Source: Nematostella vectensis
Lineage: Eukaryota
DNA length: 64,000 nucleotides
Direction: 5' to 3'
Assembly (NCBI RefSeq): GCF_932526225.1
Contig: NC_064037.1
Span: forward strand, 3,184,996 to 3,248,995
The notes beneath the pieces are model-generated. The model made no database searches. It saw only the letters and a list, made by a program, of their open reading frames with translations, and was not told the origin of the DNA. Position numbers and translations under genes: made by a program. Positions 9,448 through 63,412 of the stretch are shown piece by piece (position 1 is the stretch's first letter; each line of letters begins with the position of its first letter).

Positions 9448-9600
9448 CTGTATCACCAAAAATACAACAGTATGAGACTAAATATCTTGGCGTAGATAAG
9501 TAAACGTATACAGCTAGAATTGAGCATAAAAACATCAATTGTCAACAAAGATGTTCATGACAAGTGCAAATGTTTTCGAATTCATAACATAACTTTTTAC

Positions 9601-22021: not shown

Positions 22022-25000
22022 GTAAACTCAGCTTTTGATAATATCAGTCTTTCTAAAGTCACAAAGTAGCGCTACATTGACGAATTCAAAAGCTCCCGAA
22101 GTGACTCGATGGGAGGCTTCGTAGAGTGAAACCCGATGTTGTAAACAAGCTTATACATTGCGTTTTTAGTTTATTTTTATTGGCCGATCCAAGAGTTCCA
22201 AAAAATGTGGGGCTGAAGCAAGAGTATCAAAAAAGGGGCCGGATTCTTTCTATTTCTTGTTGGTTTATTTTTAGCCAAAAATCTGAAAATATTGGGGACT
22301 ACCCCTAGATCCGCCCCTGATGGTAAAAACCCTGAGGTTACATGACATGATATCACCAGTAAACATAACAAAACATCCTGGTTCCAGCCTCAGTGATATT
22401 TGATCATAAACAGTGACGTTGTTCAGTGCCCCAATGTGATGGCTTGTTTTCTTCAAACGTTATTACATGTTATGTTACCCGTAATTTGTTGCTGTTGCAT
22501 TTTTAACAAGGGCATGTTGCCTGATAGGGATGCTTTTTGGGAGAGGGGGGGGGGGGGGGGTATTATATATTTTAAGGGGCCATTTGAGAAAGAAATGGGC
22601 TTTTCTACTAGAAATGATATGTTTTAGGGGTTCACAGAAAGAGGCGCTGTGAGCCAATGTTTTCGTATATGATAGTTCGACTTTCTTCTGACTTTGTTGT
22701 ACAATAGGATACTTTAATCTTGCCTAAAACTGTCTCCTAAAAAATGGTTGTTTTTTTCCCTTGTAGTTTGTGATGACCATATGTTCAAGGATGAAATGCT
22801 GTTCTATCGTTTCCGTAGAGATGACAATACGCTACCAATAACCCATGATGTTGCCCTAGTGATCAGAGGATATAATATTTCACAGAGGTTTGTAGAATTC
22901 AATTACCCATTGTGGTATGTACATTATAACTGCAAATATTTCTACAAAGATGAGGTGTTCTGCATACAGTTGTAGTGTTCTCTCCATCTACTGTTTCATT
23001 GCCCACTTTTCTTTTAATTTGGGATGGCGTTTCTAGTGTTCCAATAATTAAAAAACATACTTTTATATAGTTGAAAGGAAATCATACTTGTACATATGAA
23101 GGCGCAGTTTTTTTGGTAAAAAAAGAACTAAATTATCTCATATTCTAGGCCCTTGATGAATCATGCAGACCAAATGATTCTATGTGAGTTTATGAGCAGG
23201 ATGAGTATAATCAGAATCAGTCTAAGGTGATCTAAGACACTGTCAATGTCCATCATATCCTTACTAACCTTTTTACTGTTGTGATTGCTTGTAGAATCAA
23301 AGCAGATGACTGCCACCTAGTAAAACAGCAGCAGTGTGAGGACTTTGTTTACAGAAGTTGTTTTATTGGAAGCTCTCTAGTGGACTGGATGGTTGAGAGA
23401 GGCGAGACAAATGACAGATTTGAGGCAGTGCTCCTGGGACGAGAACTCTTAGAGATTGGTCTAATGAAGCATGGTAAGCTTATTATTTCTTTATTTTGTT
23501 TAGTTCTTCATGATTCACAAGACAACACTACAACTTCTTACAACTTTTTTTATTATGTAGTGACTGATGACCATCATTTCAAGGATGATCCAAGCACCTA
23601 TTACCAGTTTGTGATTGAAAAGGTGTTTGCCAAGAAACTTATGGAAGCCTTATGTCTTCTCGAAGGACGTCAGCTTTCCCTTCCTCCGGGCTCCCCAAGG
23701 GAAGTGCGTAAAAAGAATCTATCCCTTCTCATGGGTGGACGCTCAATTCCTGTTCCTCTGTCTCCTAGCCGTGAGGCTCGTGGCAATGAATTCACAGGTA
23801 TATTGCATCAGCATTATGACCAGCTATAAGGTTGCTTGATTTCAGAATTTGTCTATTTGATTGCTGACATTTTCAATTCTTGTAGGTTTCAGGCAGTCTC
23901 CAGGAAGTCCAGATTCAGGTGGTAGCCCAGGAAATTTCAGCCCCAGACCAGGTAAAGTACCCTAGTTTTTTTTTTAAATAAATATGTTGATGCTTAAGGC
24001 ATTCTTTTTTCCATTAGTTATTGTGAGAGAGGTTACAGTTGATGAACTGCTGGATAACAATGGTCCATACACCATGAAAACCATCAGGGTAAGAAGAATA
24101 GCACTGTTTGTAACGTCTGGTTGCTATCAAGAGGCCAACAAACAATATTTTGTAAGCGATCTCACAATTACAAATCATTTTGATTTCTGCTTGTGACTAG
24201 AATTATGCCATAAAATTATAGCAAAATCTAACTTTCCAGTACACCTGCCAGAAAACCTTGTGCAAATGTGTTTGAGAGGATACAAGTAAAATAAAGAAAT
24301 CATTGTGTTGTGATTTAAAATAATCCATCGCATGAAATAACCATTATTCAAGGGTATTTAGCTTTGGTTTTCTTTTTTGTTGTTCTTTTGGGGAATCTTC
24401 CATACATTAGCCACACGAGGTTAGCATTTACGAGAAGTATGTAGGTACCTACACATGTTATTATTTTTTTTACTGTACCAGGTAATGAGTGATGCTGTAG
24501 GGTTTGGGTTTGTTGTACGTGGATCAGAGCCTGTGTTTGTACAAACAGTAGATCCATCAGGGCCTGCTGCAGCGGCAGGACTCAAGGTACAGTACGTCAA
24601 TCTGTCTTTCCCTCTGCCTACGCAATAAATTATCTGTTTGTCTTATTGTTTGTTTGTGTGCCCTTCCATCTGTTAGTCTTTTCTCTATTTGCCAATCAAT
24701 TTGTCTGTTTGTCCATTCTGTCATCAGTTCATTTCTGTCTTGAGAAGTGCCAAACTGCTGTTTTTTCTGTTGAAGTCATGAGTTTTCTGTGGGCCATTGT
24801 TTACCTAACAGTTCCCTCAATTTCCTTATAATATCAACATAACCATTGGGATTTTTATCTTCCTGTGCGAACAGTTATTATTTATATTCAACCCCTTATT
24901 TATATGTATTATATTTTATATTTAACATATTATTTTAGATATAAATGTTTATCCATTATGTGAAATAACTATTTTATCACTGTGAATATCAACTCCTGGG

Positions 25001-27414: not shown

Positions 27415-37462
<10,048 letters not shown>

Positions 37463-38204: not shown

Positions 38205-39850
38205 GTTCCGGGAAAGCTCCTCCCAGTCCCCGTGCTGAAAAACAATCAGTTATCAATCAGCCGTCAATGAGTCACCGTGTCAGAACAATCAGTTATCAAT
38301 GAGTCACCGTGTCAGAACAATCAGTTATCAATCAGCCGTCAATGAGTCACCGTGTCAGAACAATCAGTTATCAATCAGCCGTCAATGAGTCACCGTGTCA
38401 GAACAATCAGTTATCAATGAGTCACCGTGTCAGAACAATCAGTTATCAATGAGTCACCGTGTCAGAACAATCAGTTATCAATGAGTCACCGTGTCAGAAC
38501 AATCAGTTATCAATGAGTCACCGTGTCAGAACAATCAGTTATCAATGAGTCACCGTGTCAGAACAATCAGTTATCAATGAGTCACCGTGTCAGAACAATC
38601 AGTTATCAATGAGTCACCGTGTCAGAACAATCAGTTATCAATGAGTCACCGTGTCAGAACAATCAGCCGCCAAAGAGTCAAATGTCAGGACAACCAGTTA
38701 TCAGCCGTCAATGAGTCAACGTGTCAGAACAATCAGTTATCAATCAGCCGTCAATGAGTCACCGTGTCAGAACAATCAGTTATCAATCAGCCGCCAATAA
38801 GTCAACGTGTCAGGAAAACCAGTTATCAATCAGCTGTCAATGAGTCAACGTGTCAGAACAATCAGTTATCAATCAGCCGTCAATAAGACAACGTGTCAGA
38901 ACAATCAGTTATCAATCAGCCGTCAATGAGTCACCGTGTCAGAACAATCAGTTATCAATGAGTCACCGTGTCAGAACAATCAGCCGCCAAAGAGTCAAAT
39001 TTCAGGACAACCAGTTATCAGCCGTCAATGAGTCAACGTGTCAGAACAATCAGTTATCAATCAGCCGTCAATGAGTCACCGTGTCAGAACAATCAGTTAT
39101 CAATCAGCCGTCAATGAGTCAACGTGTCAGAACAATCAGTTATCAATCAGCCGTAAATGAGTCAACGTGTCAGAACAATCAGTTATCAATCAGCCGTCAA
39201 TGAGTCAACGTGTCAGGACAATCAGTTATCAATCAGCTGTCAATGAGTCAAATGTCAGAACAATCAGTTATCAATCAGCAATCAATGAGTCAACGTGTCA
39301 GGACAATCAGTTATCAATAAGCTGTCAAGGAGTCAAATGTCAGGACAATCAGTTATCAATCAGCCGTCAATGAGTTAAATGTCAGAACAATCAGTTATCA
39401 ATCAGCCGTCAATGAGTCAAATGTCAGGACAATCAGTTATCAATCAGCCGTCAATGAGTCAAATGTCATGACAATCAGTTATCGATCAGCCGTTAATGAA
39501 TCAAATGTCAGGACAATCAGTTATCAATCAGCCGTCAATGAGTCAACGTGTCAGAACAATCAGTTATCAATCAGCCGTCAATGAGTCAAATGTCAGAACA
39601 ATCAGCCGTCAATGAGTCCAATGTCAGAACAACCAGTTATCAATCAGCCGTCAATGAGTCACCGTGTCAGAACAACCAGTTATCAATGAGTCACCGTGTC
39701 AGAACAATCAGTTATCAATCAGCCGTCAATGAGTCAAATGTCAGAACAATCAGCCGTCAATGAATCAAATGTCAGAACAATCAGTTATCAATCAGCCGTC
39801 AATGAGTCAACGTGTCAGGACAATTGCTCTGAGCGCTAAATTAAAATTTC
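38205..39850. mobile_element. foldback-family element copy 2 (inverted relative to copy 1), right end truncated, subterminal repeat expanded into a satellite
   Basis: Terminus 38205 ttaaacacgaggttccgg-gaaagctcctcccagtcccc matches the reverse complement of the copy-1 right TIR. Internal unique segment ttgctctgagcgctaaatt...cctagagttgt (39815-39870) matches the reverse complement of 20560-20600. Confidence 0.65.
38230..39830. repeat. satellite, about 45-bp unit (cagttatcaatcagccgtcaatgagtcaccgtgtcagaacaat) x about 36; 22-bp sub-periodicity in places
   Basis: Direct reading; spurious ORFs 38850-39763. Confidence 0.9.
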
Positions 39851-39975: not shown

Positions 39976-40565
39976 TGATCAGCGTCTGTATCAGCGTTTG
40001 GGTTAACGTCTGTAATTGCGTTTTTACGTTTGCGTCTGTATTAGCGTTTGGGTTAGCGTCTGTGATAATTGTTTTGGTTGGCGTCTGTACAGCTTGGGTT
40101 AACGTCTGTATTAGCGTTTGGGTTAGCGTCTGTTAACGTTTGTGTTTCCGTCTGTATTAGCGTTTGGGTGTTAGCGTATGTGATTTGTGTTTGTGTTAGC
40201 GTCTGTATCAGCGTTTGTGTTAGCGTCTGTATAAGCGTTTGTGTTGGCGTCTGTATAAGCGTTTGTGTTGGCGTCTGTATTAGCGTTTGTGTTGGCGTCT
40301 GTATTAGCGTTTGTATTTGCGTCTGTATCAGCGTTTGTGTTAGCGTCTGTATCAGCGTTTGTGTTGGCGTCTGTAATAACAGCATTTTGAGTCTGTATTA
40401 GTATTTGAGGTAGCGCCTCTATAGCTTATAAAAGATAGGACAGTAAAAACATTGTTTGGGTTTGTAATAAGCGTCTAGGTTTTCGTCTGATTTAACATTT
40501 GGGTTAGCGTAGTATTAGCGTTTAGGTTAGCGTCTGTATTTGGTTTGGCTTCAGTTAAGCGTTTG
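39976..40565. repeat. GT-rich satellite, 22-24-bp unit (gcgtctgtattagcgtttgggtta) x about 26
   Basis: Direct reading. Two diverged units of the same motif (gtctatatcagcgtttggtt) flank the left end of element copy 2 at 38160-38204. ORFs 40053-40401 are artefacts. Confidence 0.9.
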
Positions 40566-42506: not shown

Positions 42507-43712
42507 ATGGAAGCGCTCGATCCGACTAGCGCTTACTTTACGAATAACTCCACCGAACTTCAGCCCAACGAGCTTACATCGGTGACGCAGCTTAGAGAAC
42601 CTTTCGGCTTGAAAGTGTTTCGCGGAATGATTTTCGCATTTGTGGTCATCGCGTCTCTGCTTGGGAATTCAGTTGTTATCAAGACCGTCTTCGAGAATTC
42701 TCTCCGCAAACCTATGACGTACTACCTTGTGAGTAACATGGCTGTCGCTGAGCTAATTGGTACGGTTCTCGTCCCTTTTAGCTACTCCTACCAAGAGATC
42801 TTCCACTGGCCGTTTGGCGAACTCCTCTGTCATATAATAGCACCATTGCAAGTGTTATCTGTGCTGGTAACAACCACATCACTGGCCGCTATTGCTCTGC
42901 ATCGGTACAAAGTGTTTACGTCTCCTCGGCGAGTCCGCGTGAGCGGTAAAACCATTACTTGTACCATCATCAGTCTTTGGGCAATCGCCTTCTTCATCAC
43001 TCTCCCTTCCTTTCTCTACCTCTCTCACGTTAAGTCGCCGACTCAAAAGGGGAAATACTGGTGCTTGGAACTCGTCCCAGGGGACCAACTTAAAGACTTT
43101 CCCTCGCCTGAATTGCGCAAATATTACATGATTCGGTTTTTTTGTAATTTCGTGATCCCGGCATGTGTGATGATGTTTTCGTATGGCGTAGTAAGCCTAC
43201 AATTGCGCTTTCATCGAAATCGCGCAGTGAGAGACGTGGAGATGGAAACCGGCAGCGACCGAACGCGCGAGACGAGCGCTTCTACCCAACCACAGCAACA
43301 AGGGACAGTAAGTATGGAGCTGCACGAAGTCGTGCGCTCGCCCCCACATGCCCAACAACCACAGCACAACGCAAGCAACAGTACGCGAGAACAAGCGACT
43401 CGCGAGCGCGCACAGCGCAAACGTCAGGCTATCTCGGGTCTAGAGACGGACTTACTAAAGATGATTTACTTAATCATTCTGATCTTCCTCGTCTGTTACT
43501 TCCCTTATCAAATATTCTTTCTGCTGGAGTATTTTGGCGTTATGAACTACAAGAATTGGCAATACTTCGACATCACTCGAATTTACGTGTTTCTCCTGAC
43601 GTGTTTCCCGTCCGCCATTCACCCTATCTGCTATGGTACGATGTCCAAGTTTTTCGCGCGCACATTCTCTCGACTGGTGCTATGCAGATGGTCGTATGGT
43701 GACTACCCGTGA
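42507..43712 (+). CDS. intronless class A GPCR, orphan, with long third intracellular loop
   Basis: 401-aa ORF; 2 N-terminal N-glycosylation motifs (NNS, NST); GNSVVI (TM1), ALHRY (DRY variant), FVIPACVMMFSYG (TM5), Gln/Ser-rich ICL3, CYFPY (TM6), SAIHPICYG (NPxxY variant HPxxY). Confidence 0.8.
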   Translation: MEALDPTSAYFTNNSTELQPNELTSVTQLREPFGLKVFRGMIFAFVVIASLLGNSVVIKTVFENSLRKPMTYYLVSNMAVAELIGTVLVPFSYSYQEIFHWPFGELLCHIIAPLQVLSVLVTTTSLAAIALHRYKVFTSPRRVRVSGKTITCTIISLWAIAFFITLPSFLYLSHVKSPTQKGKYWCLELVPGDQLKDFPSPELRKYYMIRFFCNFVIPACVMMFSYGVVSLQLRFHRNRAVRDVEMETGSDRTRETSASTQPQQQGTVSMELHEVVRSPPHAQQPQHNASNSTREQATRERAQRKRQAISGLETDLLKMIYLIILIFLVCYFPYQIFFLLEYFGVMNYKNWQYFDITRIYVFLLTCFPSAIHPICYGTMSKFFARTFSRLVLCRWSYGDYP

Positions 43713-45263: not shown

Positions 45264-46189
45264 GGGTACGGGTCTGCTTACCTTGGCTAGTACATGAAAA
45301 ACTTATTTGGATTTTTTTATAAGACTTATCGCACTCAAGCCCCCAGCTTACGGGCCTGAATATGTCCATTGAACTGTTGAAAATAAGTAAGGTCTCTCAG
45401 GTCTATTATTCAACTATGTCAACCACAGACACATCACCTTCCTATCTTTTGTATGTCAAGATAGGGGGAACTCCATGACGCATGGGGGTGGGGTGGGGGT
45501 GTCTGACCAAAATCTAATACAAAAAAATACCAAGTATCAGGTGCTTTACAAGCCCCCAAAATACTTAAACAAAAACAAAGAGAAAACTTTCTCATTTTCT
45601 TGAGTAGCAATTTTACAACAATACCCCCCTTTGTCACTGAGCCAAACCCCCCCTATAGTGAAAAGCTAGATCCGCGCTTGTAAGCAGCATGCTCGAGTTA
45701 TCGGAATTCTATACGATTATATTTAGCAGACCTAGCGCCTACAGACTACAGGTCTACGGCATTGACCTTGGGCCGGAAGGGCAATGGACAGCCTTGATTT
45801 CGCTTTTCCGTTTCCAAAAAACGTGTCCTTACTCACTCAGAGCTTAAAAATAAATTATGGATAATATTGCAGTCTCACATATAGAGTCTAAGTGCTGTAA
45901 CGCCGGGCGTCGTGTCCCCGTCCCCCTTAGCCCTTAAAAAATACGGACCCCCTTTTAAGCCCTGCTACGGTGGGCTGCCTGGTTAAATTGTCTAGCTGTT
46001 GCTAGCAACAGAGTCGGTGTGATTTCATCTTACCTCGCCTCCTCTAGCTTTATTTTGCCCTTTAGCACGCTAACGTCATCTCTTATATCCTTCTTTTTCC
46101 ATCTCTTTCTACCATTTCTGAATCTTTCTGTCTTTCTAACCAATCTCGGCCAGATCCCTCAGCTTCTCCGACCTTTTCTTCTGTGACTT

Positions 46190-46545
46190 CTCTAGTGTGA
46201 CTTCTCTTGTGTGACTTTTCTTGTGTGACTTCTCTAGTGTGACTTCTTTTGTGACTTTTCTTGTGTCACTCATCTTGTGGCTTTTCTTGTGTCACTCATC
46301 TTGTGACTTCTCTTGTGTCACTTCTGTTGTGACTTCTCTTGTGTGACTTCTCTGGTGTGACTTCTCTTGTGTGACTTCTCTTGTGTCTTCTCTTGTGTGA
46401 CTTCTAGTGTGACTTCTCTTGTGACTTCTCTTGTGACTTCTCTTGAGTGACTTCTCTTGTGTGACTTCTCTTCTTTTCTAGTGTGACTTCTCTTGTGACT
46501 TCTCTTGTGACTGCTTTTGCGACTTCTCTTGTGTGACTTCTCTTC
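46190..46545. repeat. 16-bp minisatellite (gtgacttctcttgtgt) x about 22
   Basis: Direct reading; ORF 46404-46598 is an artefact. Confidence 0.9.
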
Positions 46546-46850
46546 TCTTTCTCTTTCTCGTATCTCTTCCTTAGTTGCCGTGGCTCAACTTCATACAAAG
46601 CTGCGTTACTTAGTTAGATGTTTAAAAGGTTAAAAAAAGTCTATATAATACCCAAAAGAGCATGAATTGCTCAAATAAGCGTCTTCCAAGAAAATGCCTC
46701 GCCTTATAAACTTGATGCAAGCCCAGACGTTTACAGTGCTGCAGAGATACCATCTGGCACATTGAATGCTTGTTCTGGGATTGATTGTTACTGCTTGCAC
46801 GCTGTTAAAAAATTATTTTGGAGATGACACGAATTTTTAATACTAGCGCT

Positions 46851-48585
46851 TCTTTCGAATAAGCGCCTCCCCGAATAAGCTTCTCGCCGAATAAGCGTCT
46901 CGCCGAATATGCGTCTCGCCGAATAAGCGTCTCGCCGAATAAGCATCTCGCCGAATAAGCGTCTCGCCGAATAAGCATCTCGCCGAATAAGCGTCTCGCC
47001 AAATAAGCGTCTCGCCGAATAAGCGTCTCGCCGAATAAGCATCTCGCCGTATAAGCGTCTCGCCGAATAAGCGTCTCGCCGAATAAGCGTCTCGCCGGAT
47101 AAGCGTCTCGCCGAATAAGCATCTCGCCGAATAAGCGTCTCGCCGAATAAGCGTCTCGCCGAATAAGCATCTCGCCGTATAAGCGTCTCGCCGAATAAGC
47201 ATCTCGCCGAATAAGCGTCTCGCCGAATAAGCGTCTCGCCGAATAAGCGTCTCGCCGTATAAGCGTCTCGCCGAATAAGCATCTCGCCGAATAAGCGTCT
47301 CGCCGAATAAGCATCTCGCCGAATAAGCGTCTCGCCGAATAAGCGTCTCGCCGAATAAGCGTCTCGCCGAATAAGCGTCTCGCCGTATAAGCGTCTCGCC
47401 GAATAAGCGTCTCGCCGTATAAGCATCTCGCCGAATAAGCGTCTCGCCGAATAAGCGTCTCGCCGAATAAGCATCTCGCCGAATAAGCGTCTCGCCGAAT
47501 AAGCATCTCGCCGTATAAACGTCTCGCCGAATGAGCTTCTCGCCGAATGAGCTTCTCGCCGAATAAGCGTCTCGCCGAATAAGCGTCTCGTCGTATAAGC
47601 GTCTCGCCGAATAAGCATATCGCCGAATATGCGTCTCGCCGAATAAGCGTCTCGCCGAATAAGCATCTCGCCGAATAAGCGTCTCGCCGAATAAGCGTCT
47701 CGCCGAATAAGCGTCTCGCCGAATAAGCGTCTCGCCGTATAAGCGTCTCGCCGAATAAGCATCTCGCCGAATAAGCGTCTCGCCGAATAAGCATCTCGCC
47801 GAATAAGCGTCTCGCCGAATAAGCGTCTCGCCGAATAAGCGTCTCGCCGTATAAGCGTCTCGCCGTATAAGCGTCTCGCCGAATAAGCGTCTCGCCGTAT
47901 AAGCATCTCGCCGAATAAGCGTCTCGCCGAATAAGCGTCTCGCCGAATAAGCATCTCGCCGAATAAGCGTCTCGCCGAATAAGCATCTCGCCGTATAAGC
48001 GTCTCGCCGAATGAGCTTCTCGCCGAATAAGCGTCTCGCCGAATAAGCGTCTCGCCGTATAAGCGTCTCGCCGAATAAGCATATCGCCGAATATGCGTCT
48101 CGCCGAATAAGCATCTCGCCGAATAAGCATCTCGCCGTATAAGCGTCTCGCCGAATAAGCGCCTCGCCGAATAAGCATCTCGCCGTATAAGCGTCTCGAC
48201 GAATAAGCGTCTCGCCGAATAAGCGTCTCGCCGAATAAGCGTCTCGCCGGATAAGCGTCTCGCCGAATAAGCATCTCGCCGAATAAGCGTCTCGCCGAAT
48301 AAGCATCTCGCCGAATAAGCGTCTCGCCGAATAAGCGTCTCGCCGAATAAGCATCTCGCCGAATAAGCGTCTCGCCGAATAAGCGTCTCGACGAATAAGC
48401 GTCTCGCCGAATAAGCGTCTCGCCGAATAAGCGTCTCGCCGTATAAGCGTCTCGCCGTATAAGCGTCTCGCCGAATAAGCGTCTCGCCGAATAAGCATCT
48501 CGCCGAATAAGCGTCTCGCCGAATAAGCGTCTCGCCGAATAAGCGTCTCCCCGAATAAGCGTCTCGCCGAAATGAAAAATGAAAT
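46851..48585. repeat. 16-bp satellite (gaataagcgtctcgcc) x about 108, 1.7 kb
   Basis: Direct reading. Open in three minus-strand frames, giving artefact ORFs 46788-48615. Confidence 0.95.
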
Positions 48586-52200: not shown

Positions 52201-55098
52201 ACAGACCACTTTGAGGCAACCTGTTCCAGTCTGTCTTGATTAGGTGTACATATACATTGCCTTCCTAAAAATTATATTATGCTTCTTTTTTTTTTGTTTT
52301 GCCAGTGGCAAAATCCTTTTCCCTGCATATTGTTAGCATGCTTTTTTATATTGTGATTTTTTTTTGTGGTTTGCTTTTAGCCTGGAACCCTTATAGAATG
52401 GGGAAACAACTGGTGAGTCATTTTATGATTTTACAGATAATCACGTGGTTATTGTAATAAATGGGGGGATATGTGGCTCGAAGTGTATCCATCTACCAAG
52501 CCAATAGGATCACCCATACCCTTGACTTAATTTTGATGCAGCTTTAATTTTTTTATATTGACTGAGTCATGCCATTAACCTTAGGTTGTAAGTGATGTCC
52601 TCCGCGGCCGTGCCATTAACCTTAGGTTGTTGTGTCCTCAGGGGCCGTGCCATTAACCTTAGGTTGTTGTGTTCTCAGGGGCCGTGCCATTAACCTTAGG
52701 TTGTTGTGTCCTTAGGGGCCGTGCCATTAACCTTAGGTTGTTGTGTCCTCAGGGGCCGTGCCATTAACCTTAGGTTGTTGTGTCCTTAGGGGCCGTGCCA
52801 TTAACCTTAGGTTGTTGTGTCCTCAGGGACCGTGCTGTTAACCTTAGGTTTTTGTGTCCTTAGGGGCCGTGCCATTAACCTTAGGTTGTTGTGTCCTCAG
52901 GGGCCGTGCCATTAACCTTAGGTTGTTGTGTCCTCAGGGGCCGTGCCATTAACCTTAGGTTGTTGTGTCCTTAGGGGCCGTGCCATTAACCTTAGGTTGT
53001 TGTGTCCTCAGGGACCGTGCCGTTAACCTTAGGTTGTTGTGTCCTTAGGGGCCGTGCCATTAACCTTAGGTTGTTGTGTCCTCAGGGGCCGTGCCATTAA
53101 CCTTAGGTTGTTGTGTTCTCAGGGGCCGTGCCATTAACCTTAGGTTGTTGTGTCCTCAGGGGCCATGCCATTAACCTTAGGTTGTTGTGTCCTCAGGGGC
53201 CGTGCCATTAACCTTAGGTTGTTGTGTCCTAAGGGGCCATGCCATTAACCTTAGGTTGTTGTGTTCTCAGGGGCCGTGCCATTAACCTTAGGTTGTTGTG
53301 TCTTAGGGGCCGTGCCATTAACCTTAGGTTGTTGTGTCTTAGGGGCCGTGCCATTAACCTTAGGTTGTTGTGTCTTAGGGGCCGTGCCATTAACCTTAGG
53401 TTGTTGTGTCTTAGGGGCCGTGCCATTAACCTTAGGTTGTTGTGTCTTAGGGGCCGTGCCATTAACCTTAGGTTGTTGTGTCTTAGGGGCTGTGCCATTC
53501 ACTGTAGGGGTTGTGGTGTCCTTAGGGGCCGTGCCATTAACCTTAGGTTGTTGTGTTCTCAGGGGCCGTGCCATTAACCTTAGGTTGTTGTGTCTTAGGG
53601 GCCGTGCCATTAACCTTAGGTTGTTGTGTCTTAGGGGCCGTGCCATTAACCTTAGGTTGTTGTGTCTTAGGGGCTGTGCCATTCACTGTAGGGGTTGTGG
53701 TGTCCTTAGGGGCCATGCCATTAACCTTAGGTTGTTGTGTCCTCAGGGACCGTGCCATTAACCTTAGGTTGTTTTGTCCTCAGGGGCCGTGCCATTAACC
53801 TTAGGTTGTTGTGTCCTCAGGGGCTGTGCCATTAACCTTAGGTTGTTGTGTCCTCAGGGGCCGTGCCATTAACCTTAGGTTGTTGTGTCCTCAGGGGCCG
53901 TGCCATTAACCTTAGGTTGTTGTGTCCTCAGGGGCCATGCCATTAACCTTAGGTTGTTGTGTCCTCAGGGGCCGTGCCATTAACCTTAGGTTGTTGTGTC
54001 CTCAGGAGCCGTGCCATTAACCTTAGGTTGTTGTGTCCTCAGGGACCGTGCCATTGACCTTAGGTTGTTGTGTCCTAAGGGGCCATGCCATTAACATTAG
54101 GTTGTTGTGTTCTCAGGGGCCGTGCCATTAACCTTATGTTGTTGTTGCCTCAGGGGCCGTGCCATTAACCTTAGGTTGTTGTGTCCTCAGGGACCGTGCC
54201 ATTAACCTTAGGTTGTTGTGTCCTCAGGGGCCGTGCCATTAACCTTAGGTTGTTGTGTCCTCAGGGACTGTGCCATTGACCTTAGGTTGTTGTGTCCTAA
54301 GGGGCCATGCCATTAACCTTAGGTTGTTGTGTTCTCAGGGGCCGTGCCATTAAACTTCGCCAAGAGGAAGATGAGGCAGTTGGCGGATTCTTTTCACAAA
54401 TTGGGGAATTGTACATGGTGCACCATATATGGGGTTAGTGAAACCTTTCCATGACCTTTATTCAGGCACCCTTAGATCCTTACTGAGGTTATATTTGTGT
54501 TTGTTCTCAGCTTACAAGGATCTTGTGAAGCGCAAAGAGATTCGCCAAAACCTTTGGAACAATCCTGGGTGGGATGACTGCGTTGGTAACACTGGTACAT
54601 ATTAACAATATCTTAATAATTCCAACATTCATCTGTTGGTAACACTGGTACATATTAACAAATCTTTATAATTCCAACATTCATCTGTTGGTAACACTGG
54701 TACATATTAACAATATCTTAATAATTCCAACATTCATCTGTTGGTAACACTGGTACATATTAACAATATCTTTATAATTCCAACATTCATCTGTTGGTAA
54801 CACTGGTACATTAGCAATATCTTAATAATTCCAACATTCATCTGTTGGTAACACTGGTACATATTAACAATATCTTAATAATTCCAACATTTATTTTGTC
54901 GTTATCTATTTATCTTGTTGGTAACACTGGTACATTAACAATATCTCAATAATTCCAACATTCATTTTTGTCGTTATCTATTTATCTTGTTGTTAAGAAC
55001 TTTGTTCAACTGATTTCTACCTCATATTTTCAGTGCCTCTGATTCGCCGCATGGAATCTTGGGTAATGGTTCCTCTACCCTACTCACCTTCCAAGTGA
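49006..55098 (+). CDS. NIPSNAP: NIPSNAP-like gene span (9 exons, 277 aa; N-terminal mitochondrial presequence-like)
   Basis: Matches human NIPSNAP1 throughout: [36 protein letters not shown]; [21 protein letters not shown]; [20 protein letters not shown]; [94 protein letters not shown]; [47 protein letters not shown]. Summed CDS 834 nt. Exons: 49006-49219, 50131-50176, 50547-50641, 50848-50918, 52013-52153, 52381-52412, 54339-54433, 54511-54585, 55034-55098. Confidence 0.9.
50131..50176 (+). CDS. NIPSNAP: NIPSNAP-like exon 2 ([16 protein letters not shown])
   Basis: ctttcag| acceptor; donor GT|GTAAGT. Confidence 0.75.
50547..50641 (+). CDS. NIPSNAP: NIPSNAP-like exon 3
   Basis: ...[15 protein letters not shown] matches human LVGNWNTWYGEQDQA; donor A|GTATGT. 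Confidence 0.8.
50848..50918 (+). CDS. NIPSNAP: NIPSNAP-like exon 4
   Basis: [24 protein letters not shown]; donor CCG|GTAGGT. Confidence 0.8.
51040..51945. mobile_element. about 0.9-kb element with about 25-bp terminal inverted repeats (tacagggcttctggaattatg ... cataatccaggaagccctgta) and internal attatgcgc sub-repeats, in NIPSNAP-like intron 4
   Basis: TIRs read directly near 51055-51085 and 51918-51945; ORF 50944-51189 overlaps and is rejected. Confidence 0.5.
52013..52153 (+). CDS. NIPSNAP: NIPSNAP-like exon 5
   Basis: 47 codons, most conserved block; donor AAG|GTACAT. Confidence 0.9.
52381..52412 (+). CDS. NIPSNAP: NIPSNAP-like exon 6 ([10 protein letters not shown]+W)
   Basis: ttttag| acceptor; donor TG|GTGAGT. 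Confidence 0.85.
52571..54338 (+). repeat. 37-38-bp minisatellite x about 47, tandem amplification of the exon 7 3' splice site plus first 15 nt of exon 7
   Basis: Unit ttgttgtgtcctcag|GGGCCGTGCCATTAAccttagg. The real junction is gttgttgtgttctcag|GGGCCGTGCCATTAAActtcgcc. Spurious ORFs 53229-53798. Confidence 0.9.
54339..54433 (+). CDS. NIPSNAP: NIPSNAP-like exon 7 ((W)[31 protein letters not shown])
   Basis: The acceptor ttctcag| is the last unit of the upstream minisatellite; donor G|GTTAGT. Confidence 0.85.
54511..54585 (+). CDS. NIPSNAP: NIPSNAP-like exon 8 ([25 protein letters not shown])
   Basis: Donor G|GTAACA is the first unit of the downstream minisatellite. Confidence 0.85.
54586..54990 (+). 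repeat. 53-bp minisatellite x about 7 derived from the exon 8 5' splice site (ctgttg|GTAACACTGGTACATattaacaatatcttaataattccaacattcat)
   Basis: The real exon 8 end is gcgttg|GTAACACTGGTACAT. Each unit repeats the donor plus flanking nt. Confidence 0.9.
55034..55098 (+). CDS. NIPSNAP: NIPSNAP-like exon 9, terminal ([21 protein letters not shown], stop TGA)
   Basis: matches human [21 protein letters not shown]. Confidence 0.85.
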
Positions 55099-55892: not shown

Positions 55893-56281
55893 TTAATCCA
55901 TAGTACAATATCTGATGTCACAACCCGCAGTTGGGCTAAGTCGGTATACATAAAACTTTCCACAATTCCGCACAAGCGCTGGAACCTTGTGGTAACAGCA
56001 GTCGTTGGCATAGTCCCCAAAACACACGTGTGTCATCACACAACCGTCTTCTTTTCGCGGGTGCTGACCGTACAGCCAGCCGGGAAATTTGGCGTTACAG
56101 CTGCCAGGGGCCTGGCACGACGTGGGCATTTTCGTGCCAGCATCCCCGGATATTCGGTACCAGCCCTCCGCGAGGTTTGCGTCACAGGAGCCCAGCATCT
56201 TAGAGCTGTGGACTTGGCGATCTCCGTCGTGGAGGAGGTTGTAGTGATGACATTCATACGCAACCTCCCCGACATCATAAC
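55893..56281 (-). CDS. exon 11, terminal: D8C domain (uromodulin/GP2-type) with stop TAA
   Basis: ECHHYNLL...CDANLAEGWYRISGDAGTKMPTSC...CNAKFPGWLYGQHPRKEDGCVMTHVCF...CCYHKVPALVRNCGKFYVYRL...CDIRYCT matches the D8C consensus (GWYRF, MPE.C, CNT..P.WLNG.HP, CC, C.GGYYVY.L, C..AYC); acceptor aaattccccag|GT. Confidence 0.75.
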
Positions 56282-59200
56282 CTGGGGAATTTAGACGGGA
56301 ATCGCACAAGTTTTAGTTTAGCAACAAAGTAAGCCTGGGGAAGTCACGAGAGTTTTAGCTAAACGACAACATAACCTGTGTAGTTCAGCCTTCATCATAT
56401 TACAATGTTCGTTCAGCTGTTGTATAAAGAAGAAGAATTTCGAGTGTTTCTGAATAGTACTTTAATGACCTTCCATTGTGGATACCCAGACAGAACGCCT
56501 TGGGTAGACTGTAAAGTTGGTAGCCGATCAAATAATCAATGGGTCAACGAGCTAGACTTACATATGAAACGAGTCCCACTCCATGGCTTACATATGGGAT
56601 GGGTCCCACTCCATGACTCACATAAGGGATGGGTCCTATTCCTTGACTTACATATTGGATGGGTCCCACTCCATGACTTACATATGGGATGGGTCCCACT
56701 CCATGACTTACATATGGGATGGGTCCCACTCCATGACTTACATATGGGATGGGTCCCACTTCATGACTTACATATGGGATGGGTCCTACTCCAAGACTTA
56801 CATATGGGATGGGTCCCACACCATGACTTACATATGGGATGGGTCCTACTCCATGACTTACATATGGAATGGGTCCCACTCCATGACTTACATATGGGAT
56901 GGGTCCCACTCCATGACTTACATATGGGATGGGTCCTACTCCATGACTTACATATGGAATGGGTCCCACTCCATGACTTACATATGGGATGGGTCCCACT
57001 CCATGACTTACATATGGGATGGGTCCCACTCCATGACTTACATATGGGATGGGTCCTACTCCATGACTTACATATGGGATAAGTCCCACTCCATGGCTTA
57101 CATATGGGATGGGTCCCACTCCATGACTTACATATGGGATGGGTCCCACTCCAAGACTTACATATGGGATAAGTCCCACTCCATGACTTACATATGGGAT
57201 GGGTCCCACTCCAAGACTTACATATGGAATGGGTCCCACTCCATGACTTACATATGGGATGGGTCCCACTCCAAGACTTACATATGGAATGGGTCCCACT
57301 CCATGACTTACATATGGGATGGGTCCCACTCCATGACTTACATATGGGATGGGTCCCACTCCATGACTAACATATTGGATGGGTCCCACTCCATGACTTA
57401 CATATGGGATGGGTCCCACTCCAAGACTTACATATGGGATGGGTCCCACTTCATGACTTACATATGGGATGGGTCCCACTTCATGACTTACATATGGGAT
57501 GGGTCCCACTCCAAGACTTACATATGGGATGGGTCCCACTCCATGACTTACATATGGGATGGGTCCCACTCCATTGACCATGCTCGGTACATATGCGCAC
57601 AGCCGAGCCATAGAGCATACATCCGGGCTTGCACGAGTACGTCACAGCACTGCCCACATGATAATCGTTGCCGCTGACCATTCCATTGAACAGAGGCTCG
57701 GGTTCCTTGCACGCTGCCAGACCTGGACAAGTAGAAGATTGGAGAGGAATGAGGTTTCACGTGGAGAAACGGGATTAAACAAAAAGGAACGAGATCAAAC
57801 AAGAAGGGACCAGATTACAGGAGAAGAAATAAGGAGCACACAAGAAGAAAATGGATTAGGAAAAGAAACTAGATTTTATGCAAGGAGGAGCACGAAAGAC
57901 GAGAAGGAACTAAAGTACACGAGGAGACTGAACAATGATAGATTACACGATGAAAATTACACGACGAGAAACAAGATTGCACGATGAGAAACTGGATCAA
58001 TCGAGAAGAAACTAGATTATATATTGAGGATCACGGGGACAATATTGAGAGATTATAACTTACAAGGAGAAACCAGATCAAACTCGTTTTGATATCGTGA
58101 ACAAGATTATTCCATGATGGTAATCTATTTTCTAGCGCATTACGTACTTAGCTGCGTGAAGTATCCGATCGGCTTCTCCAGAAACTTGGTTTTTGCGGCG
58201 CAAAAATATTTGCCCTGGTCAGCTGATGATGGACGTTGGATCGTGTAGACAGCGGTGAACTCGTCCTCATCCTTCAAGATCTTGGTTGGCAAGGCAACGT
58301 CATCTTTGTACCACGTGAGCGTTGGTGAAGGAGTGCCTTTGGCTGTACAGTTTAGGATGATCGGTGTGTTCACGTTTTTGATTTTGAGTGTGGCAGGGGC
58401 AACCTTAAGGAATTTGACAGCACCTGGAGAAATTAAGAAAGCAAAAAGACACAGACGTAATAAACCACGTGCCTTCGAATAATGCGCGTTCCATCGTTGA
58501 AAATGAAAGAAGTCTAGACACATCTGGGATAGTAGTTATTGGACTTACTAAACCTTTCCACAGTAACGTCTATTGCAGCAATGACGGAGCCCATAGGGCT
58601 GCTCGCGCGACAGATATACAGTCCCTCATCTTCCTGGGTAAAACATGTAGTAGATATGAACGTAAGCTTACATGGAGATTGAACAAATGGTTTGCAGTAC
58701 ATTTACAGTATCTAGTCATCTCGGTTGAAGCGTACAGTACTCAATCATGGCCTACGCGGCTTAGGGAGAAAAGGTTGGCTTTCTCCTGTAATCATCAAGA
58801 TAGTGCTTGGTTCTCTTGAACTATTTGCTTACCTTGTTGGGGTCGTTCAGATATAACACGCCCTGCACGACCTTGTGCCTTTCCTCCGACAACTTCTTGT
58901 CCCTAGTCCTTCTCCACGTCACCACAGGCTCCGGGTAGCCCTCAACCTTGCACTCCAGCTTGGTGGACGTGCTCTGGAACGCTGTCACTTTGCTCGGAGG
59001 TTTCTCTATGAACTTGGGTTTCGCTAAGAAAATACAAGTATGTAAAGGGCTGTCACTAAAACTTAATATAGACTACCCCCTCAGGGAAAACAAGAATATT
59101 TCGAGTATATTTCAATTTCCATTATCGCGTGTAAAAATTTAAAATTTATTCAAATAAGGTTGCACTCAAGAATCCATGTGTCGTTACCCGCGGTGGTCTA

Positions 59201-62200
59201 TTGACAGCATAAAAAACTCCCAAGCGCTAACCTCTCACTTATTTGAAACCTGCGGTGGTCTATAGACTCCCAAGCGCTAACCTCTCACTGATTTGAAACC
59301 CGCGGTTGTCTATAGACTCCCAAGCGCTAACCTCTTACTGATTTGGAACCCGCGGTGGTCTATAGACTCCCAAGCGCTAATCTCTCACTTAATTGAAACC
59401 CGCGGTGGTCTATAGACTCCCAAGCGCTAACCTCTCACTGATTTGAAACCCACGGTGGTCTATAGACTCCCAAGCGCTGACCTCTTACTGATTTGAAACC
59501 CGCGGTGGTCTATAGACTCCCAAGCGCTAGCCACTCACTGATTTGAAACCCGCGGTGGTCTATAGACTCCCAAGCGCTAACCTCTAACTGATTTGAAACC
59601 GGGACCTATGACTTAAAAGCGACGTACATAGCTTGACATTAAGGAGCAGCTTTTATCTGTTTAATAACCAGGTCCTCTAGGGGAGTCGATTAAATCCTGT
59701 TAACACAGCCCTTTCAAAGCAACAGTATAATTGAGAATGACAATTACATCAATATGGCAACCATTGCCAATCTCCTCTCTCTTCTCCCCCAGTGAGCGCC
59801 AAACTTACTTGCGACTATGATATCCGTGGCAGCCCTCGCCGGGCCCCTCCCCCCTTCTCTCCCAGTGAGCGTCAATATCTTACCTGCGACTATGATATCT
59901 GTGGCAGCCCTCGCCGAAACCCTTCCCCCTTCTCCCCCAGTGAGCGCCAATATCTTACCTGCGACTATGATATCCGTGGCATGCCTCGCCGAACCCCTCC
60001 CCCCTTCTCCCCCCAGTGAGCGCCAAACTTACTTGCGACTATGATATCCGTGGCATGCCTCGCCGAACCCCTTCTCCCCCCAGTGAGCGCCAAACTTACT
60101 TGCGACTATGATATCCGTGGCAGCCCTTGCCGAACCCATTGCGTTTTTTGCATTGAACACCCAGGTCCCCGAGTCCTCGGGCTGTGCTTTGCTAAAGCCG
60201 AGGGTGCTGCTAAAAATAGCCTCTCGGGACCCCTCCTTAGTCCAATACGTGTCGGGGACGGGGAAACCGCTGGCTTTTGCAGTGAAAGTAAATGGGCTCC
60301 CAGCCTTAAGGGTTATTTTGGGTGGTGGTTTTACTGTGATATTTGGCGCCACTGAAAAAGGAAGGAAAAACATGAAAAAGGAAAGCATTCCTGAGCGAAA
60401 ACACAGATATCCCGCTCGTTCAGAATATACTATTCTTAGTGGGGTCTAGGAGATGACTTGGAAAATTTGGTTCGCTTTGTTCGTGCTTTTACAATATTCC
60501 AGTCCATTTACAAAACACATAGCATTGTTATCGTTGTTGCTTTGCAAGATTCGCTGCGTAAAATCGGGTTCTTCCGAAAAACGGTAAGTCAACTCTAGAG
60601 ATTTTCAAGTAAACTATAAAACTGTTGTAATCAGACTTACTTACCAAACCCTTGCGGCAAGGCTGCTCCGCCTCCCTTACCGCTACCCGTGTCTGTACCT
60701 ACTCCCGAGACATCTACGCCCCCTTCAGCAGAGCCTGCGCCTGCAACACCTATCCCAAAGCCATTCCCTCCCACGCTTCCGACGAAGCGTCCCCCAGTCA
60801 CAGGCACCCAGCGGCCGTCCTTCATCATGACAGCCGATGTACCAGGGAGTCCCCTAGGTCCCGTATGCCCGCGAGCTCCACGGTACCCTCTCAATCCTCT
60901 TGGACCTCGAGGACCCGGGGAACCGACGATGGCTATTACTTGAGTCCGCCCTGCTTCGGCCTTTCCGGTGGCGACTGTAAAAACGAAAGAGTATTTTACA
61001 ACATTTCTCAGGCCTTTTTTCGCCCTGTCCGGTGGCTTATCCGATAAAAGGATTCTCCTCCCATTCCATCAAAACAGGAACAACCGAGGCCTGAAAAATG
61101 TTGTAATCTGTAGGGTGAGGGGATATTTCCAATCATATACCTTCAATGAAGCTGGCCTCTGCTTGTCCCCTCATCGGCTTTAATGGTAGGGTGTATAAAG
61201 GGTGGGTGGGGTGGGGAAAGCATATACTCACCCACTCCTTTCTTCAGCCGTTCCGTGAGCTTTTTGTCTATAAAAGACTCCATTGACGCCGCGTCAGTGA
61301 TTTTTGTGCCCTCGAAGATTCTTTCTGTTAAATCAGGTGCAAACAAGTAGTGTGTAGTGTACGGTTTAGAGACTGAAGAGGGCTGAAAATGTTTACAGAA
61401 TGTTTGTATGCATTTTTGTCTTTTTTTTTTTTTTGCATCGGTTAGCGTCGCCAAAATAAATTTATATTAGAACATGGGCACTTTTGGACCTTTTCATGAT
61501 CGCCCAAGACAAAGGGTAGTCGACTCGACTCGAGATGCAGACTGAGGGTCCTTCACACCTAGTGAGAGTGTGCGAGGGATGGAGAAAAGTAAAAACAATT
61601 CGCGAAGGCCGTATGTACAACTGAGAGTGGAGAGACTTGAAGTGAAAAATAACATAAAAGCACTGCGATTTGCGGACCGACTTACCCATTTTCTGATCCA
61701 CATAAGCATTGATGTAGCGTCTTGTGGCCAGCGGTAGTTGACGACCGTCTGTATAGAGCAAGCATTTACTAAATGGGCTAGCATGTCCCAAGAGACCATG
61801 GGAACACACGAGGTAAATCCCGGCTACAAATATCTCTTATATTATAGCTTTTATTAGAAACCTTACTCACTTATCAGAGTTGTGCTCCCCTTGTCCACGG
61901 TAACCCCTGGAAACGATGGAAAAGCTGCAAGTTTTAGATGACTAGGGCTACAGATTTTACACAATTTTTTTCTTGGGGGGGAGGGGGGTTGTAGGTAACA
62001 CAATTGAAGCACTATAGTACTGACTTACATTGCTTGTACTCCACTTCTTACCAAGATCGACGGATCCGTTGATTGTTTTGATTCCTCCAGCGTCAATACT
62101 GATATTCTTTCCGTCAGCTGTCACAGAATGATAAAGGCTATAAGCGTCTTTTCGTATCTGCATAGGGATGTGTTTGACTGCTCTTGGGCCCTTTGTTTTA

Positions 62201-63412
62201 TTCTGCTTGAACTAACTGATGCTCACTCCATTCGTGTGTGTACTATATAAACTATACTAAATGGAATAAACATACAGACATAAATTGTCTTATGTAAAAG
62301 ACACAAGTATTGTGTAGCTTCACTGGGTATAATTGTGAAATGTTTGATCTTCTAAGATGGCTATACGAGTCTTTTACTGCATGGTAGCTAAACTACCCTA
62401 GCCTCGTCCCCAGGCTACTCCCTTTCTGTCAGCTCCATGATGCTTTGCGCGCACTCACACTTTCCAATATGGCGGACGCTTCAGAGCAGAAAGGGCCAGT
62501 GACGTCATAGCCATGTAGAGCGTGATAGGCCCGCCGAGAAGCACAGGGACGAGGCTACAACTACCCTACACCATGGCGAAAGGGCTTAGAAGAGATGGTA
62601 GTTGGTCCGGTATTTTACATTATTGGTTATCTCATATTTTACAAAATATTTCTACCTGTAACGCAGATTATCCCAGATGGTCCCTGTTGAATAAAACAAT
62701 AACAAGCAGTAACAAAAATGCCAATACGGTAAAATGACATATAGACCACATGATAGTGCAAACGTCGGTGTTTCAATTTACTGGTTATTGTTATACCAAT
62801 GGCGATGCCATTTGGTTTGAATCTGGAGGGACAAGCTATTTTCATTTTAAAGTGGGGCCCCATATAACGGACATCAAATTAGCAGCCAGGCAAGTAGCCA
62901 GGGGGGGGATGGAAGGGGGCTCACAGTCCACTATTTGCTGGTTTAGGGGGAGGAGGTGCGCTTGAGGTTACAGAGGCTTTCTCGCTCTAGTTTTTAGAGG
63001 ATAAAGCGGGATAGAATACCTTGATTATCCGCTTGCACTTGGTTGTCAGTGGAACAGGGAGGATATTCGTCACGTCACTGAAGTTTACAGAAACGCGTCG
63101 TGGCTGTCCCATGTCTCCCTGTGGGATCCTTCTCGGGTCACCTCCATCCACCGGATAACCCCCTGGAGTGCGTTTTATGTTATATCGCCTTGGCACGGCA
63201 GCGCGAGGGACGCGCGAAAAGACGCGAGAAGGATCGATATATTCGCGACCCTTTGCGGTCTCCATTTGTATACGTAATTGTATGATGTCTTGGTTCAATA
63301 CGTGCGTAGTGTACGAAACAAATACAATAGATGCCACTAGCATCGCAAAGTTCAGAAGGCTTAGTACCAAATGCCAGTTTGTAGGTTTGAGAGAAGGTTT
63401 TTGCTTGTCCAT
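55893..63412 (-). CDS. novel type II membrane protein gene span: N-terminal signal-anchor, short collagen-like triple-helix segment, 3 Ig (I-set-like) domains, Sushi/CCP, C-terminal D8C domain (about 807 aa, 11 exons)
   Basis: Phase-consistent GT-AG chain on the minus strand: 63020-63412, 62052-62157 (tentative), 61686-61823, 61232-61324, 60645-60974, 60100-60351, 58833-59023, 58549-58633, 58148-58423, 57552-57722, 55893-56281. Summed length 2424 nt, divisible by 3. Every domain exon is phase 1-1 or pairs to give phase 1-1, as typical for Ig and Sushi modules. Confidence 0.65.
56550..57551 (-). repeat. 30-bp minisatellite x about 33 made of the last 20 nt of the Sushi exon plus its GTAAGT donor (minus strand unit catggagtgggacccatcccatatGTAAGT)
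   Basis: The array starts at the first intron base and is contiguous with the exon end ...caatggagtgggacccatcccatat|gtaagt. Plus strand reads ggatgggtcccactccatgacttacatatg. It yields 355-364-aa artefact ORFs in several frames. Confidence 0.9.
57552..57722 (-). CDS. exon 10: Sushi/CCP domain (CKEPEPLFNGMVSGNDYHVGSAVTYSCKPGCMLYGSAVRICTEHGQWSGTHPI)
   Basis: 4 Cys, conserved Trp, Y-x-C and G-x-W-S-G motifs; acceptor ttgtccag|GT; donor ATAT|GTAAGT; phase 1-1. Confidence 0.8.
58148..58423 (-). CDS. exon 9: Ig domain 3 (APATLKIKNVNTPIILNCTAKGTPSPTLTWYKDDVALPTKILKDEDEFTAVYTIQRPSSADQGKYFCAAKTK...)
   Basis: acceptor tttctccag|GT; donor CTAA|GTACGT; phase 1-1. Confidence 0.75.
58549..58633 (-). CDS. 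exon 8: Ig domain 2, second half (EDEGLYICRASSPMGSVIAAIDVTVERF)
   Basis: acceptor ttttacccag|GAA; donor TTTA|GTAAGT; phase 0-1. Confidence 0.65.
58833..59023 (-). CDS. exon 7: Ig domain 2, first half (KPKFIEKPPSKVTAFQSTSTKLECKVEGYPEPVVTWRR...)
   Basis: acceptor ttcttag|CG; donor AAG|GTAAGC; phase 1-0. Confidence 0.7.
59175..59605. repeat. about 60-bp tandem repeat x 7 (cccgcggtggtctatagactcccaagcgctaacctctcactgatttgaaa)
   Basis: Direct reading; lies in the intron between Ig domains 1 and 2. Confidence 0.9.
59790..60099 (-). repeat. about 63-bp tandem repeat x 5 derived from the Ig-domain-1 exon end + donor (minus strand ccacggatatcatagtcgcaAGTAAGtttggcgctcactgg...)
   Basis: Units contain gatatcatagtcgca(a/g)gtaag, identical to the exon end GATATCATAGTCGCAA|GTAAGT. 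ORFs 59744-60044 are artefacts. Confidence 0.85.
60100..60351 (-). CDS. exon 6: Ig domain 1 (APNITVKPPPKITLKAGSPFTFTAKASGFPVPDTYWTKEG...EDSGTWVFNAKNAMGSARAATDIIVA)
   Basis: acceptor cctttttcag|TG; donor GCAA|GTAAGT; phase 1-1. The donor region is amplified in the adjacent repeat. Confidence 0.75.
60645..60974 (-). CDS. exon 5: collagen-like segment (GSPGPRGPRGLRGYRGARGHTGPRGLPG = 9 Gly-X-Y) followed by Gly-rich region
   Basis: acceptor tttttacag|TC; donor TTTG|GTAAGT; phase 1-1; 109 codons. Confidence 0.65.
61232..61324 (-). CDS. exon 4: ERIFEGTKITDAASMESFIDKKLTERLKKGV
   Basis: acceptor gatttaacag|AA; donor GTGG|GTGAGT; phase 1-1. Confidence 0.5.
61686..61823 (-). CDS. exon 3: GIYLVCSHGLLGHASPFSKCLLYTDGRQLPLATRRYINAYVDQKM
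   Basis: acceptor atatttgtag|CC; donor ATGG|GTAAGT; phase 1-1. Confidence 0.5.
62052..62157 (-). CDS. exon 2 (tentative): ...IRKDAYSLYHSVTADGKNISIDAGGIKTINGSVDL
   Basis: Only one frame is open. Donor CTTG|GTAAGA gives phase 1, which matches the exon 3 acceptor. The acceptor is uncertain; an alternative extends to about 62205. Confidence 0.35.
63020..63412 (-). CDS. exon 1: cytoplasmic N-terminus + TM signal-anchor (WHLVLSLLNFAMLVASIVFVSY) + Gly/Pro-rich segment
   Basis: ATG 63412; 131 codons; donor ATCAAG|GTATTC at 63019. Confidence 0.55.

Follow-up and report, generated by a model that had tools for sequence, protein, structure and literature searches.

In the anemone Nematostella vectensis, an intron of a minus-strand gene begins with a minisatellite that reiterates the splice junction directly in front of it. 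The array lies in a stretch of 64,000 nucleotides (nt) of the RefSeq assembly GCF_932526225.1 (contig NC_064037.1, positions 3,184,996 to 3,248,995 of the forward strand), which we call the window, and it follows on an exon that encodes a Sushi domain. We suggest that the array is an intronic minisatellite that arose by duplication of the exon/intron junction, that the first of its reiterated 5' splice sites (donors) is the one in use, and that the array is spliced out with its intron and is most likely neutral or slightly costly. We put the probability of this reading at about 80%. Positions given below are those of the window, and the coordinates of the features are collected in Table 1.

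A 30-nt unit of the minus strand is repeated 34 times, head-to-tail and in register, at 56556-57575, and its copies are numbered here as copy 0 and copies 1-33. Tandem Repeats Finder (TRF) places the array at 56555-57574 with a period of 30, 34.0 copies, 93% matches, 0% indels and a score of 1788. The consensus unit, CATGGAGTGGGACCCATCCCATATGTAAGT, is made of 23 exon nt, the donor hexamer and 1 intron nt. Copy 0 is the end of the Sushi exon together with its donor; it is identical to the consensus at 29 of 30 positions, with 23 of its 24 exon nt matching and one mismatch. A first-pass annotation, made from the letters of the window, had described about 33 copies of a 30-bp unit that are contiguous with the Sushi exon, and both points hold, there being 33 copies beyond copy 0. 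It had also given the unit as the last 20 nt of the exon plus GTAAGT, which is right in joining the exon end to the donor and has to be corrected in its length to the make-up given above. The hexamer reads GTAAGT in 30 of the 34 copies, GTAAGC in two, and GTGAGT and GTTAGT in one each, while the positions -3 to -1 are TAT in every one of them.

When a 22-nt core of the unit was searched in the window with up to three mismatches, 33 matches were found, all within the array, and 0 were expected from 100 shuffles; the unit is therefore no chance pattern, and it is not a dispersed element either. The array occupies 990 of the 1270 nt of the intron. The 30 positions that follow the last copy (56555-56526) agree with the unit at 14 of 30 and share GACCCAT with it, which may be a decayed copy, a chance match or ancestral microhomology. 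In JGI metagenome contigs, an exact search for the 30-nt unit gave 0 matches. It was also seen that every unit of the array (57546-56556, minus strand) holds a pyrimidine-rich stretch followed by AG (cccatcccatatgtaag/t; here and below a slash marks a splice site), and these are candidate weak 3' splice sites in principle.

The host gene was modelled with a clean frame of 745 codons and GT-AG borders at all eight introns, with the donor of copy 0 (donor 0) in use. Its predicted product is a type-II membrane protein that is anchored by its N-terminus and carries, as assigned with Pfam, a short collagen stretch, three Ig domains and one Sushi domain, followed by a D8C (uromodulin-type) domain at the C-terminus. 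The Sushi exon matches the Pfam Sushi profile PF00084 over its full length (residues 1-54 against profile positions 1-56 of 56, E=1.1e-12) and has the four Cys and the conserved Trp of the family, the fourth Cys being completed across the intron. The exon ends in ...TGG AGT GGG ACC CAT CCC ATA T, with 57552 as its last base (minus-strand letters caatggagtgggacccatcccatat, then gtaagt), and the authentic donor splits the codon of this fourth Cys as T/GT in phase 1 (ATA T/GTAAGT). Splicing of donor 0 onto the acceptor of the D8C exon restores TGT and the frame runs on as YDVGEVAYECHHY..., the predicted product across the junction being ...WSGTHPI-C-YDVGEVAYEC.... In the 5' part of the gene, at 61686-62683 of the minus strand, exon 1 and the collagen exon can also be joined by a phase-1 chain of four small candidate exons (28, 66, 36 and 63 nt), all with good splice sites. 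These take the place of the 151-nt exon at 61232-61382 and give an alternative model of 759 amino acids (aa). An exact look-up in the protein collection found neither the 745-aa nor the 759-aa version of the 5' part.

Homologous genes of two other species, L001 and L010, both from metagenome assemblies, have an intron at the same point. L001 has the exon order of the Nematostella gene (collagen, Ig, Ig, Ig, Sushi, D8C) and its junction reads CCG GTC T/GTAAGTAC ... gtccccag/GT CAC GAC, while that of L010 reads ATC T/GTAAGC ... ttttgcag/GC TAC TAC; a phase-1 intron that splits the Cys codon at the Sushi end is common to all three. Since the Cys codon is restored, the D8C exon follows in frame and the intron position recurs in L001 and L010, the exon boundary is sound, and the earlier placement of the Sushi exon end at this phase-1 GTAAGT was borne out. 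The equivalent introns of L001 and L010 contain no such array, and that of L001 (~720 nt) has only a (TGGA)n microsatellite. The boundary is kept in these two loci and the array is not, which makes the former old and the latter a lineage-specific addition. A further difference was seen in the second Ig domain, which is split in Nematostella (exons 59023-58833 and 58633-58549; region 58549-59023, minus strand) and lies in a single exon in L001 (6886-7467); this difference is an intron gain or loss between Nematostella and the L001 species.

One question that is raised by such an array is whether it might be translated. The array would then be a coding exon with a repeat domain of HPICKSWSGT units, and the real donor would lie at or past the last copy. 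The consensus unit is indeed stop-free in the Sushi frame, as are 29 of the 33 copies, and this frame is open over stretches of 74 to 201 codons. Yet four Sushi-frame stops lie within the array: the TGA of copy 3, which begins at 57483, and further stops that start at 57453, 57369 and 56763. Due to these four stops there is no open frame that continues from the upstream exon, and the array cannot be a translated repeat. The conservation of the exon boundary in two other species also speaks against a coding exon, and the repeat is not seen in homologous or known proteins: an exhaustive HMMER search with the HPICKSWSGT frame among 1.84 billion representatives gave 280 weak matches, all of them unrelated proteins with a 10-residue period. 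We find a translated array hardly credible.

The long open reading frames (ORFs) that cover the array have a different origin. The GVGPIPYVSH frame is open for 365 aa (minus strand, 56547-57641) and differs from the Sushi frame, and a plus-strand ORF of 369 aa also runs over the array; both ORFs are artefacts. The first-pass annotation was correct that such ORFs exist and are artefactual, but the fully open frame that it reported is not the one in which the Sushi exon is read. Its proposal to look for the repeat in proteomes brought nothing from public proteins with either open frame, as a word-indexed protein search with the GVGPIPYVSH frame gave no match and the HMMER search gave the unrelated matches described above. 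One of these, P0157, has WSVTRPTCDV repeats with a W-S-x-T-x-P-x-C skeleton that resembles the C-terminus of a Sushi domain; it is encoded by an unrelated 30-nt minisatellite (L013, 62-360; ENA ERZ27250106, contig k141_317019), the only contig with it, which begins with a Nextera adapter that is followed directly by the array.

Minisatellites that reiterate a splice junction are known from human genes. In F7, a 37-bp minisatellite of 5-9 copies lies in intron 7, and its first monomer extends across the border with exon 7 (Borensztajn et al., 2006, PMC1557585). It was shown that the most upstream donor alone is used and that the pseudo-sites are functional but silent; when the first site was inactivated the next one became active, which the authors read as 5'-to-3' selection of the most upstream site (PMC1557585). 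The anemone array resembles the F7 array in that the first monomer covers the boundary, the repeat stands at the intron start and pseudo-donors identical to the authentic donor come after it at a fixed short spacing. It differs in the make-up of the unit (4 exon and 33 intron nt in 5-9 copies in F7, 23 exon and 7 intron nt in 34 copies in the anemone) and in the donor, which is weak in F7 (UGG/gugggu) and a perfect GTAAGT on the intron side in the anemone. Moreover, the use of the first site in F7 was shown by experiment, whereas for the anemone array it is an expectation.

Other cases are summarized in the same paper, from which we take them in the form given there. Intron 2 of the interferon-inducible gene 6-16 (IFI6) has 25 pseudo-sites, and the authentic donor is used together with two proximal ones (Turri et al., 1995, cited in PMC1557585). 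CBS intron 13 carries a variable number of tandem repeats (VNTR) with a 31-bp unit in 15-20 monomers, where the authentic and two pseudo-sites are used; LMNB2 has a 100-bp junction repeat in 10-15 copies that takes up the greater part of an intron; and PDGFA intron 4 has 16-18 copies of 81 bp (PMC1557585). As far as these summaries go, IFI6 is similar to the anemone gene in its many reiterated donors (25 pseudo-sites against 33), in the frame that is kept and in the in-frame insertions that proximal pseudo-donors give, but its authentic and two proximal sites are in constitutive use, while the use of donors 1-2 in the anemone is a mere possibility. In CBS, LMNB2 and PDGFA, in this account, the exon/intron junction is likewise reiterated, the 31-bp period of CBS and the copy numbers are similar to ours, and the LMNB2 intron is mostly covered, like that of the anemone; unlike the anemone array, these are vertebrate repeats with documented copy-number polymorphism, and that of CBS is also associated with enzyme activity. 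The class is described by units of ~10-100 bp that stand head-to-tail, by a first monomer that spans the exon-intron boundary and by a donor that is reiterated in the later monomers. We find all of these features, the second in copy 0 and the third in copies 1-33, and by its letters the anemone array is a member of the class of F7, IFI6, CBS, LMNB2 and PDGFA.

We propose that a 30-bp segment straddling the Sushi exon/intron boundary was duplicated in tandem, which together with the register is shown by the sequence itself, and was then amplified. Copy 0 would have stayed the working exon end and donor, and the other 33 copies would be intron that carries the same strong 5' splice site. The most upstream donor would be chosen and the whole array would leave with the 1270-nt intron. 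We infer the use of the first donor from the mammalian precedent, from the stops that make donors 3-33 unproductive and from the parallel case of the MVP gene described below; the other copies would be removed with the intron because the first donor is chosen. When all 34 donors were spliced in silico onto the D8C acceptor, donor 0 gave the normal protein, pseudo-donors 1 and 2 gave full-length in-frame products with 10 or 20 additional aa (CKSWSGTHPI per unit), and donors 3-33 all ran into the TGA in copy 3, so that their products are truncated. The earlier annotation expected in-frame 10-aa repeats from the use of any later copy; this is thus true for 2 of the 33 pseudo-donors, and fails for donors 3-33, whose use would lead to a premature stop and presumably to transcript decay. 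Some low-level use of donors 1-2 may occur, as is known from human IFI6 and CBS, and would give the forms longer by 10 or 20 aa.

A more far-reaching option is that the first two or three donors are working alternative 5' splice sites, which produce isoforms with a Sushi-D8C linker lengthened by 10 or 20 residues, as in IFI6/6-16. This would fit the 30-nt period, which is a multiple of 3 and keeps the junction phase, the full-length in-frame products of pseudo-donors 1 and 2, and the closeness of the CBS period (31 nt). However, each insert would bring a fifth Cys right behind a complete four-Cys Sushi domain, where harm to folding is likelier than help. No homologue has the insert, the proteins P0001-P0007, all of which bear PF23283, lack the repeat, and no such protein was found in public protein searches. 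The open frame of copies 1-2 is itself expected by chance with the proportion of stop-free copies given above. We therefore consider functional alternative donors unlikely.

The history of the array can be read in part from its variants. The copies diverge from the consensus at 3.6% of positions on average and fall into 14 variant types in the order ABCDDCEBBFCFCGCHGIBBFIBFIJKDBBLMHN, with the most diverged copies at the distal array end. The string holds higher-order duplications of 60 and 90 nt (patterns FCFC and BFIBFI), and these patterns suggest recent slippage or unequal exchange. Growth and reshuffling of the array would have taken place by these processes, judging by the shared multi-unit variants, and the array is probably variable in copy number. 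Hairpin-driven slippage was considered as an origin, as the 30-nt unit contains an imperfect inverted repeat. For either strand, DNA folds of one and three units were not significantly more stable than shuffles, and neither was an RNA fold in which the exon end was joined to four units (z=-0.8 to -1.9), so that a hairpin-based expansion is unsupported.

The same variants bear on the possibility that the array, or its length, is an artefact of the assembly. Long near-identical tandem arrays are hard to assemble, and a single assembly was examined. Against this stand the 14 structured variant types with their higher-order patterns, found in place of identical units, and the many other arrays with different units that were resolved in the same window. 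In addition, two intronless genes of the window are exact RefSeq N. vectensis proteins, on a chromosome-scale sequence of 19.3 Mb. An assembly artefact is highly improbable.

The Sushi array is not the only one of its kind in the window, which contains ~20 distinct minisatellite arrays and of whose 64 kb ~12 kb (19%) is tandem array. In the same gene, the junction behind the Ig1 exon is repeated; the unit combines the final ~35 nt of the Ig1 exon (end 60100) with GTAAGT or GTAAGA and ~35 nt of intron, and the exon ends at the same phase-1 point in L001. On the plus strand, the gene of the major vault protein (MVP) has an array that starts at the donor of exon 28346-28526 (ending GGA CCA G/GT), with the next exon from 30013. 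Both arrays are like the Sushi array in that copies of an exon end with its donor extend into the intron, on the host gene's sense strand. The exon share of the unit differs, being 23 of 30 nt in the Sushi array, ~35 of 75 nt in Ig1 and 7 of 33 nt in MVP, and so does the coding potential. The Ig1 pseudo-donors (G at 60032, 59958, 59883 and 59808) are out of frame in the first case and meet a stop in the other three. In MVP, where 40 CCAG/GTR sites were counted including the authentic donor, 21 are in frame and stop-free, which corresponds to 20 of the 39 pseudo-donors. No insertion is present in any MVP homologue from molluscs to vertebrates, and EGPGT[YL]IPRKEVE is the reading in all of them, the homologues retrieved in the homology search being short proteins of 380 aa or less; the first MVP donor must therefore be the productive one. 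Two further arrays in introns of MVP lie on the acceptor side, and the unit of the one at 32901-33094 contains the polypyrimidine tract and AG of the true acceptor.

Of the 20 arrays, four contain roughly one strong 5' splice site hexamer per unit, on one strand in each, and three of these four adjoin an exon end on the sense strand. The fourth (17263-17716) has no recognisable exon beside it and was taken as an ordinary array. We compared the counts with a crude null model that spreads array seeds uniformly over the two genes; the introns are short and largely filled with array, and the comparison covers one window. Three donor-spanning arrays were seen against 0.72 expected (Poisson P=0.036), and five donor and acceptor arrays together against 1.43 expected (P=0.016). 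This excess of junction arrays over the uniform model is suggestive only.

A rival hypothesis is that the Sushi array is maintained for its 33 additional binding sites for the U1 small nuclear ribonucleoprotein (snRNP) at the intron start and has a regulatory role, for example by suppressing premature cleavage and polyadenylation, by raising the local U1 level for a donor with a weak exon side, or by slowing splicing and retaining the transcript. The 30 GTAAGT and one GTGAGT cores among the 34 units, with perfect U1 pairing from +1 to +6, would suit this hypothesis, as would the three such arrays within 64 kb on the sense strand of their genes, slightly above the crude null, and the restriction of per-unit hexamers to so few arrays, most of them beside an exon end. 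Yet conservation of the donor hexamer does not significantly exceed that of the remaining positions (4 of 204 positions changed against 33 of 816, Fisher p=0.21), which gives no sign of protected pseudo-donors. The equivalent introns in the two other species lack the array, arrays on the acceptor side and arrays with no splice site are equally common in the window, which suggests a genome that is generally rich in minisatellites, and no such function is seen in the human precedents (PMC1557585). A regulatory role through U1 is very unlikely.

Several points weigh against our preferred explanation, a spliced-out junction minisatellite with first-donor use. The rule that the first donor is chosen comes from mammalian cells and from no cnidarian. 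The exon side of donor 0 is weak, with TAT in place of CAG, and is identical in all the pseudo-donors. Of nine full-length protein models, namely the 745-aa gene and eight variants with donor 1 or 2, with other 5' exons or with other donors of the collagen exon, none, not even one with donor 0, was found when the protein collection was searched by exact look-up. The number of donor-spanning arrays leaves some room for a process beyond neutral chance. Finally, the array and its copy number were seen in one assembly.

Table 1. Features of the window discussed in the text (window positions; a slash marks a splice site).
Feature	Position	Strand	Details
Copy 0 of the 30-nt unit	57546..57575	-	24 exon nt + GTAAGT (57551-57546); register table
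Copies 1-33 of the unit CATGGAGTGGGACCCATCCCATATGTAAGT	56556..57545	-	Intronic pseudo-donors, 30-nt spacing; TRF, register, variants
Sushi (CCP) exon	57552..57722	-	171 nt, phase 1-1; acceptor ctacttgtccag/, donor /gtaagtca
Authentic 5' splice site GTAAGT	57546..57551	-	Context TAT/GTAAGTC; donor G = 57551
First Sushi-frame stop, TGA	57481..57483	-	Copy 3; G-to-A variant, TCA TGG to TCA TGA
Intron remainder without repeat	56284..56555	-	Downstream of array
Acceptor AG of D8C exon	56282..56283	-	ttccccag/GT TAT GAT
Last coding exon, D8C (uromodulin-like) domain	55893..56281	-	Includes stop codon; Pfam D8C_UMOD E=4.5e-13
Ig1 donor-junction array	59781..60137	-	~5 copies, 67-75-nt unit, same gene; Ig1 exon 60100-60351
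MVP donor-junction array	28527..29804	+	~39 copies of 33-nt unit, each GGACCAG/GTATGTAC
MVP intron acceptor-side array	32901-33094	+	35-nt unit repeats cgtctttgcctcag, like true acceptor cttgcctcag/GCG; exon from ~33108
MVP intron acceptor-side array	36817-37337	+	71-nt unit, nearly fills 580-nt intron up to acceptor ~37346
Other minisatellite	46856-48571		16 nt x 107
Other minisatellite	52570-54357		37 nt x 48
Other minisatellite	38241-39824		43 nt x 41
Other minisatellite	39981-40375		24 nt x 16
Other minisatellite	46173-46546		14 nt x 29
Intronless rhodopsin-type G-protein-coupled receptor (GPCR)	1449-2465	+	Residue-for-residue identity to XP_001623426.1
Intronless rhodopsin-type GPCR	42507-43712	+	Residue-for-residue identity to XP_001628201.2
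RING + WWE protein ORF (RNF146-like)	8705-9541	-	
Exons with DEP domains	21751-23826	+	

The five other minisatellites in Table 1 are intergenic or unassigned, between the MVP, GPCR and Sushi genes, and have no per-unit 5' splice site hexamer.

Taken alone, the array matters little. It is a cnidarian example of a repeat type that is known from five or more genes in humans, and there is no indication that it changes the protein. For annotators it holds a warning, as the 365-aa and 369-aa ORFs are artefactual and gene predictors may choose the wrong donor among 34 identical ones. What novelty remains is the apparent local abundance of arrays derived from splice junctions in the Nematostella genome, where two genes within 64 kb contain three donor arrays and two on the acceptor side. 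That junction-reiterating minisatellites are systematically common in Nematostella genes is a doubtful extrapolation from this one region. If true, such commonness would point to a seeding process at splice junctions (e.g., linked to transcription or to U1) or to selection for arrays of U1 sites at intron starts, and the genome would be a natural large-scale test of the choice that a cnidarian spliceosome makes when dozens of 5' splice sites are identical. If the local density is typical of the genome, Nematostella populations would have, in junction-derived minisatellites, a sizeable source of splicing variation that is as yet unstudied.

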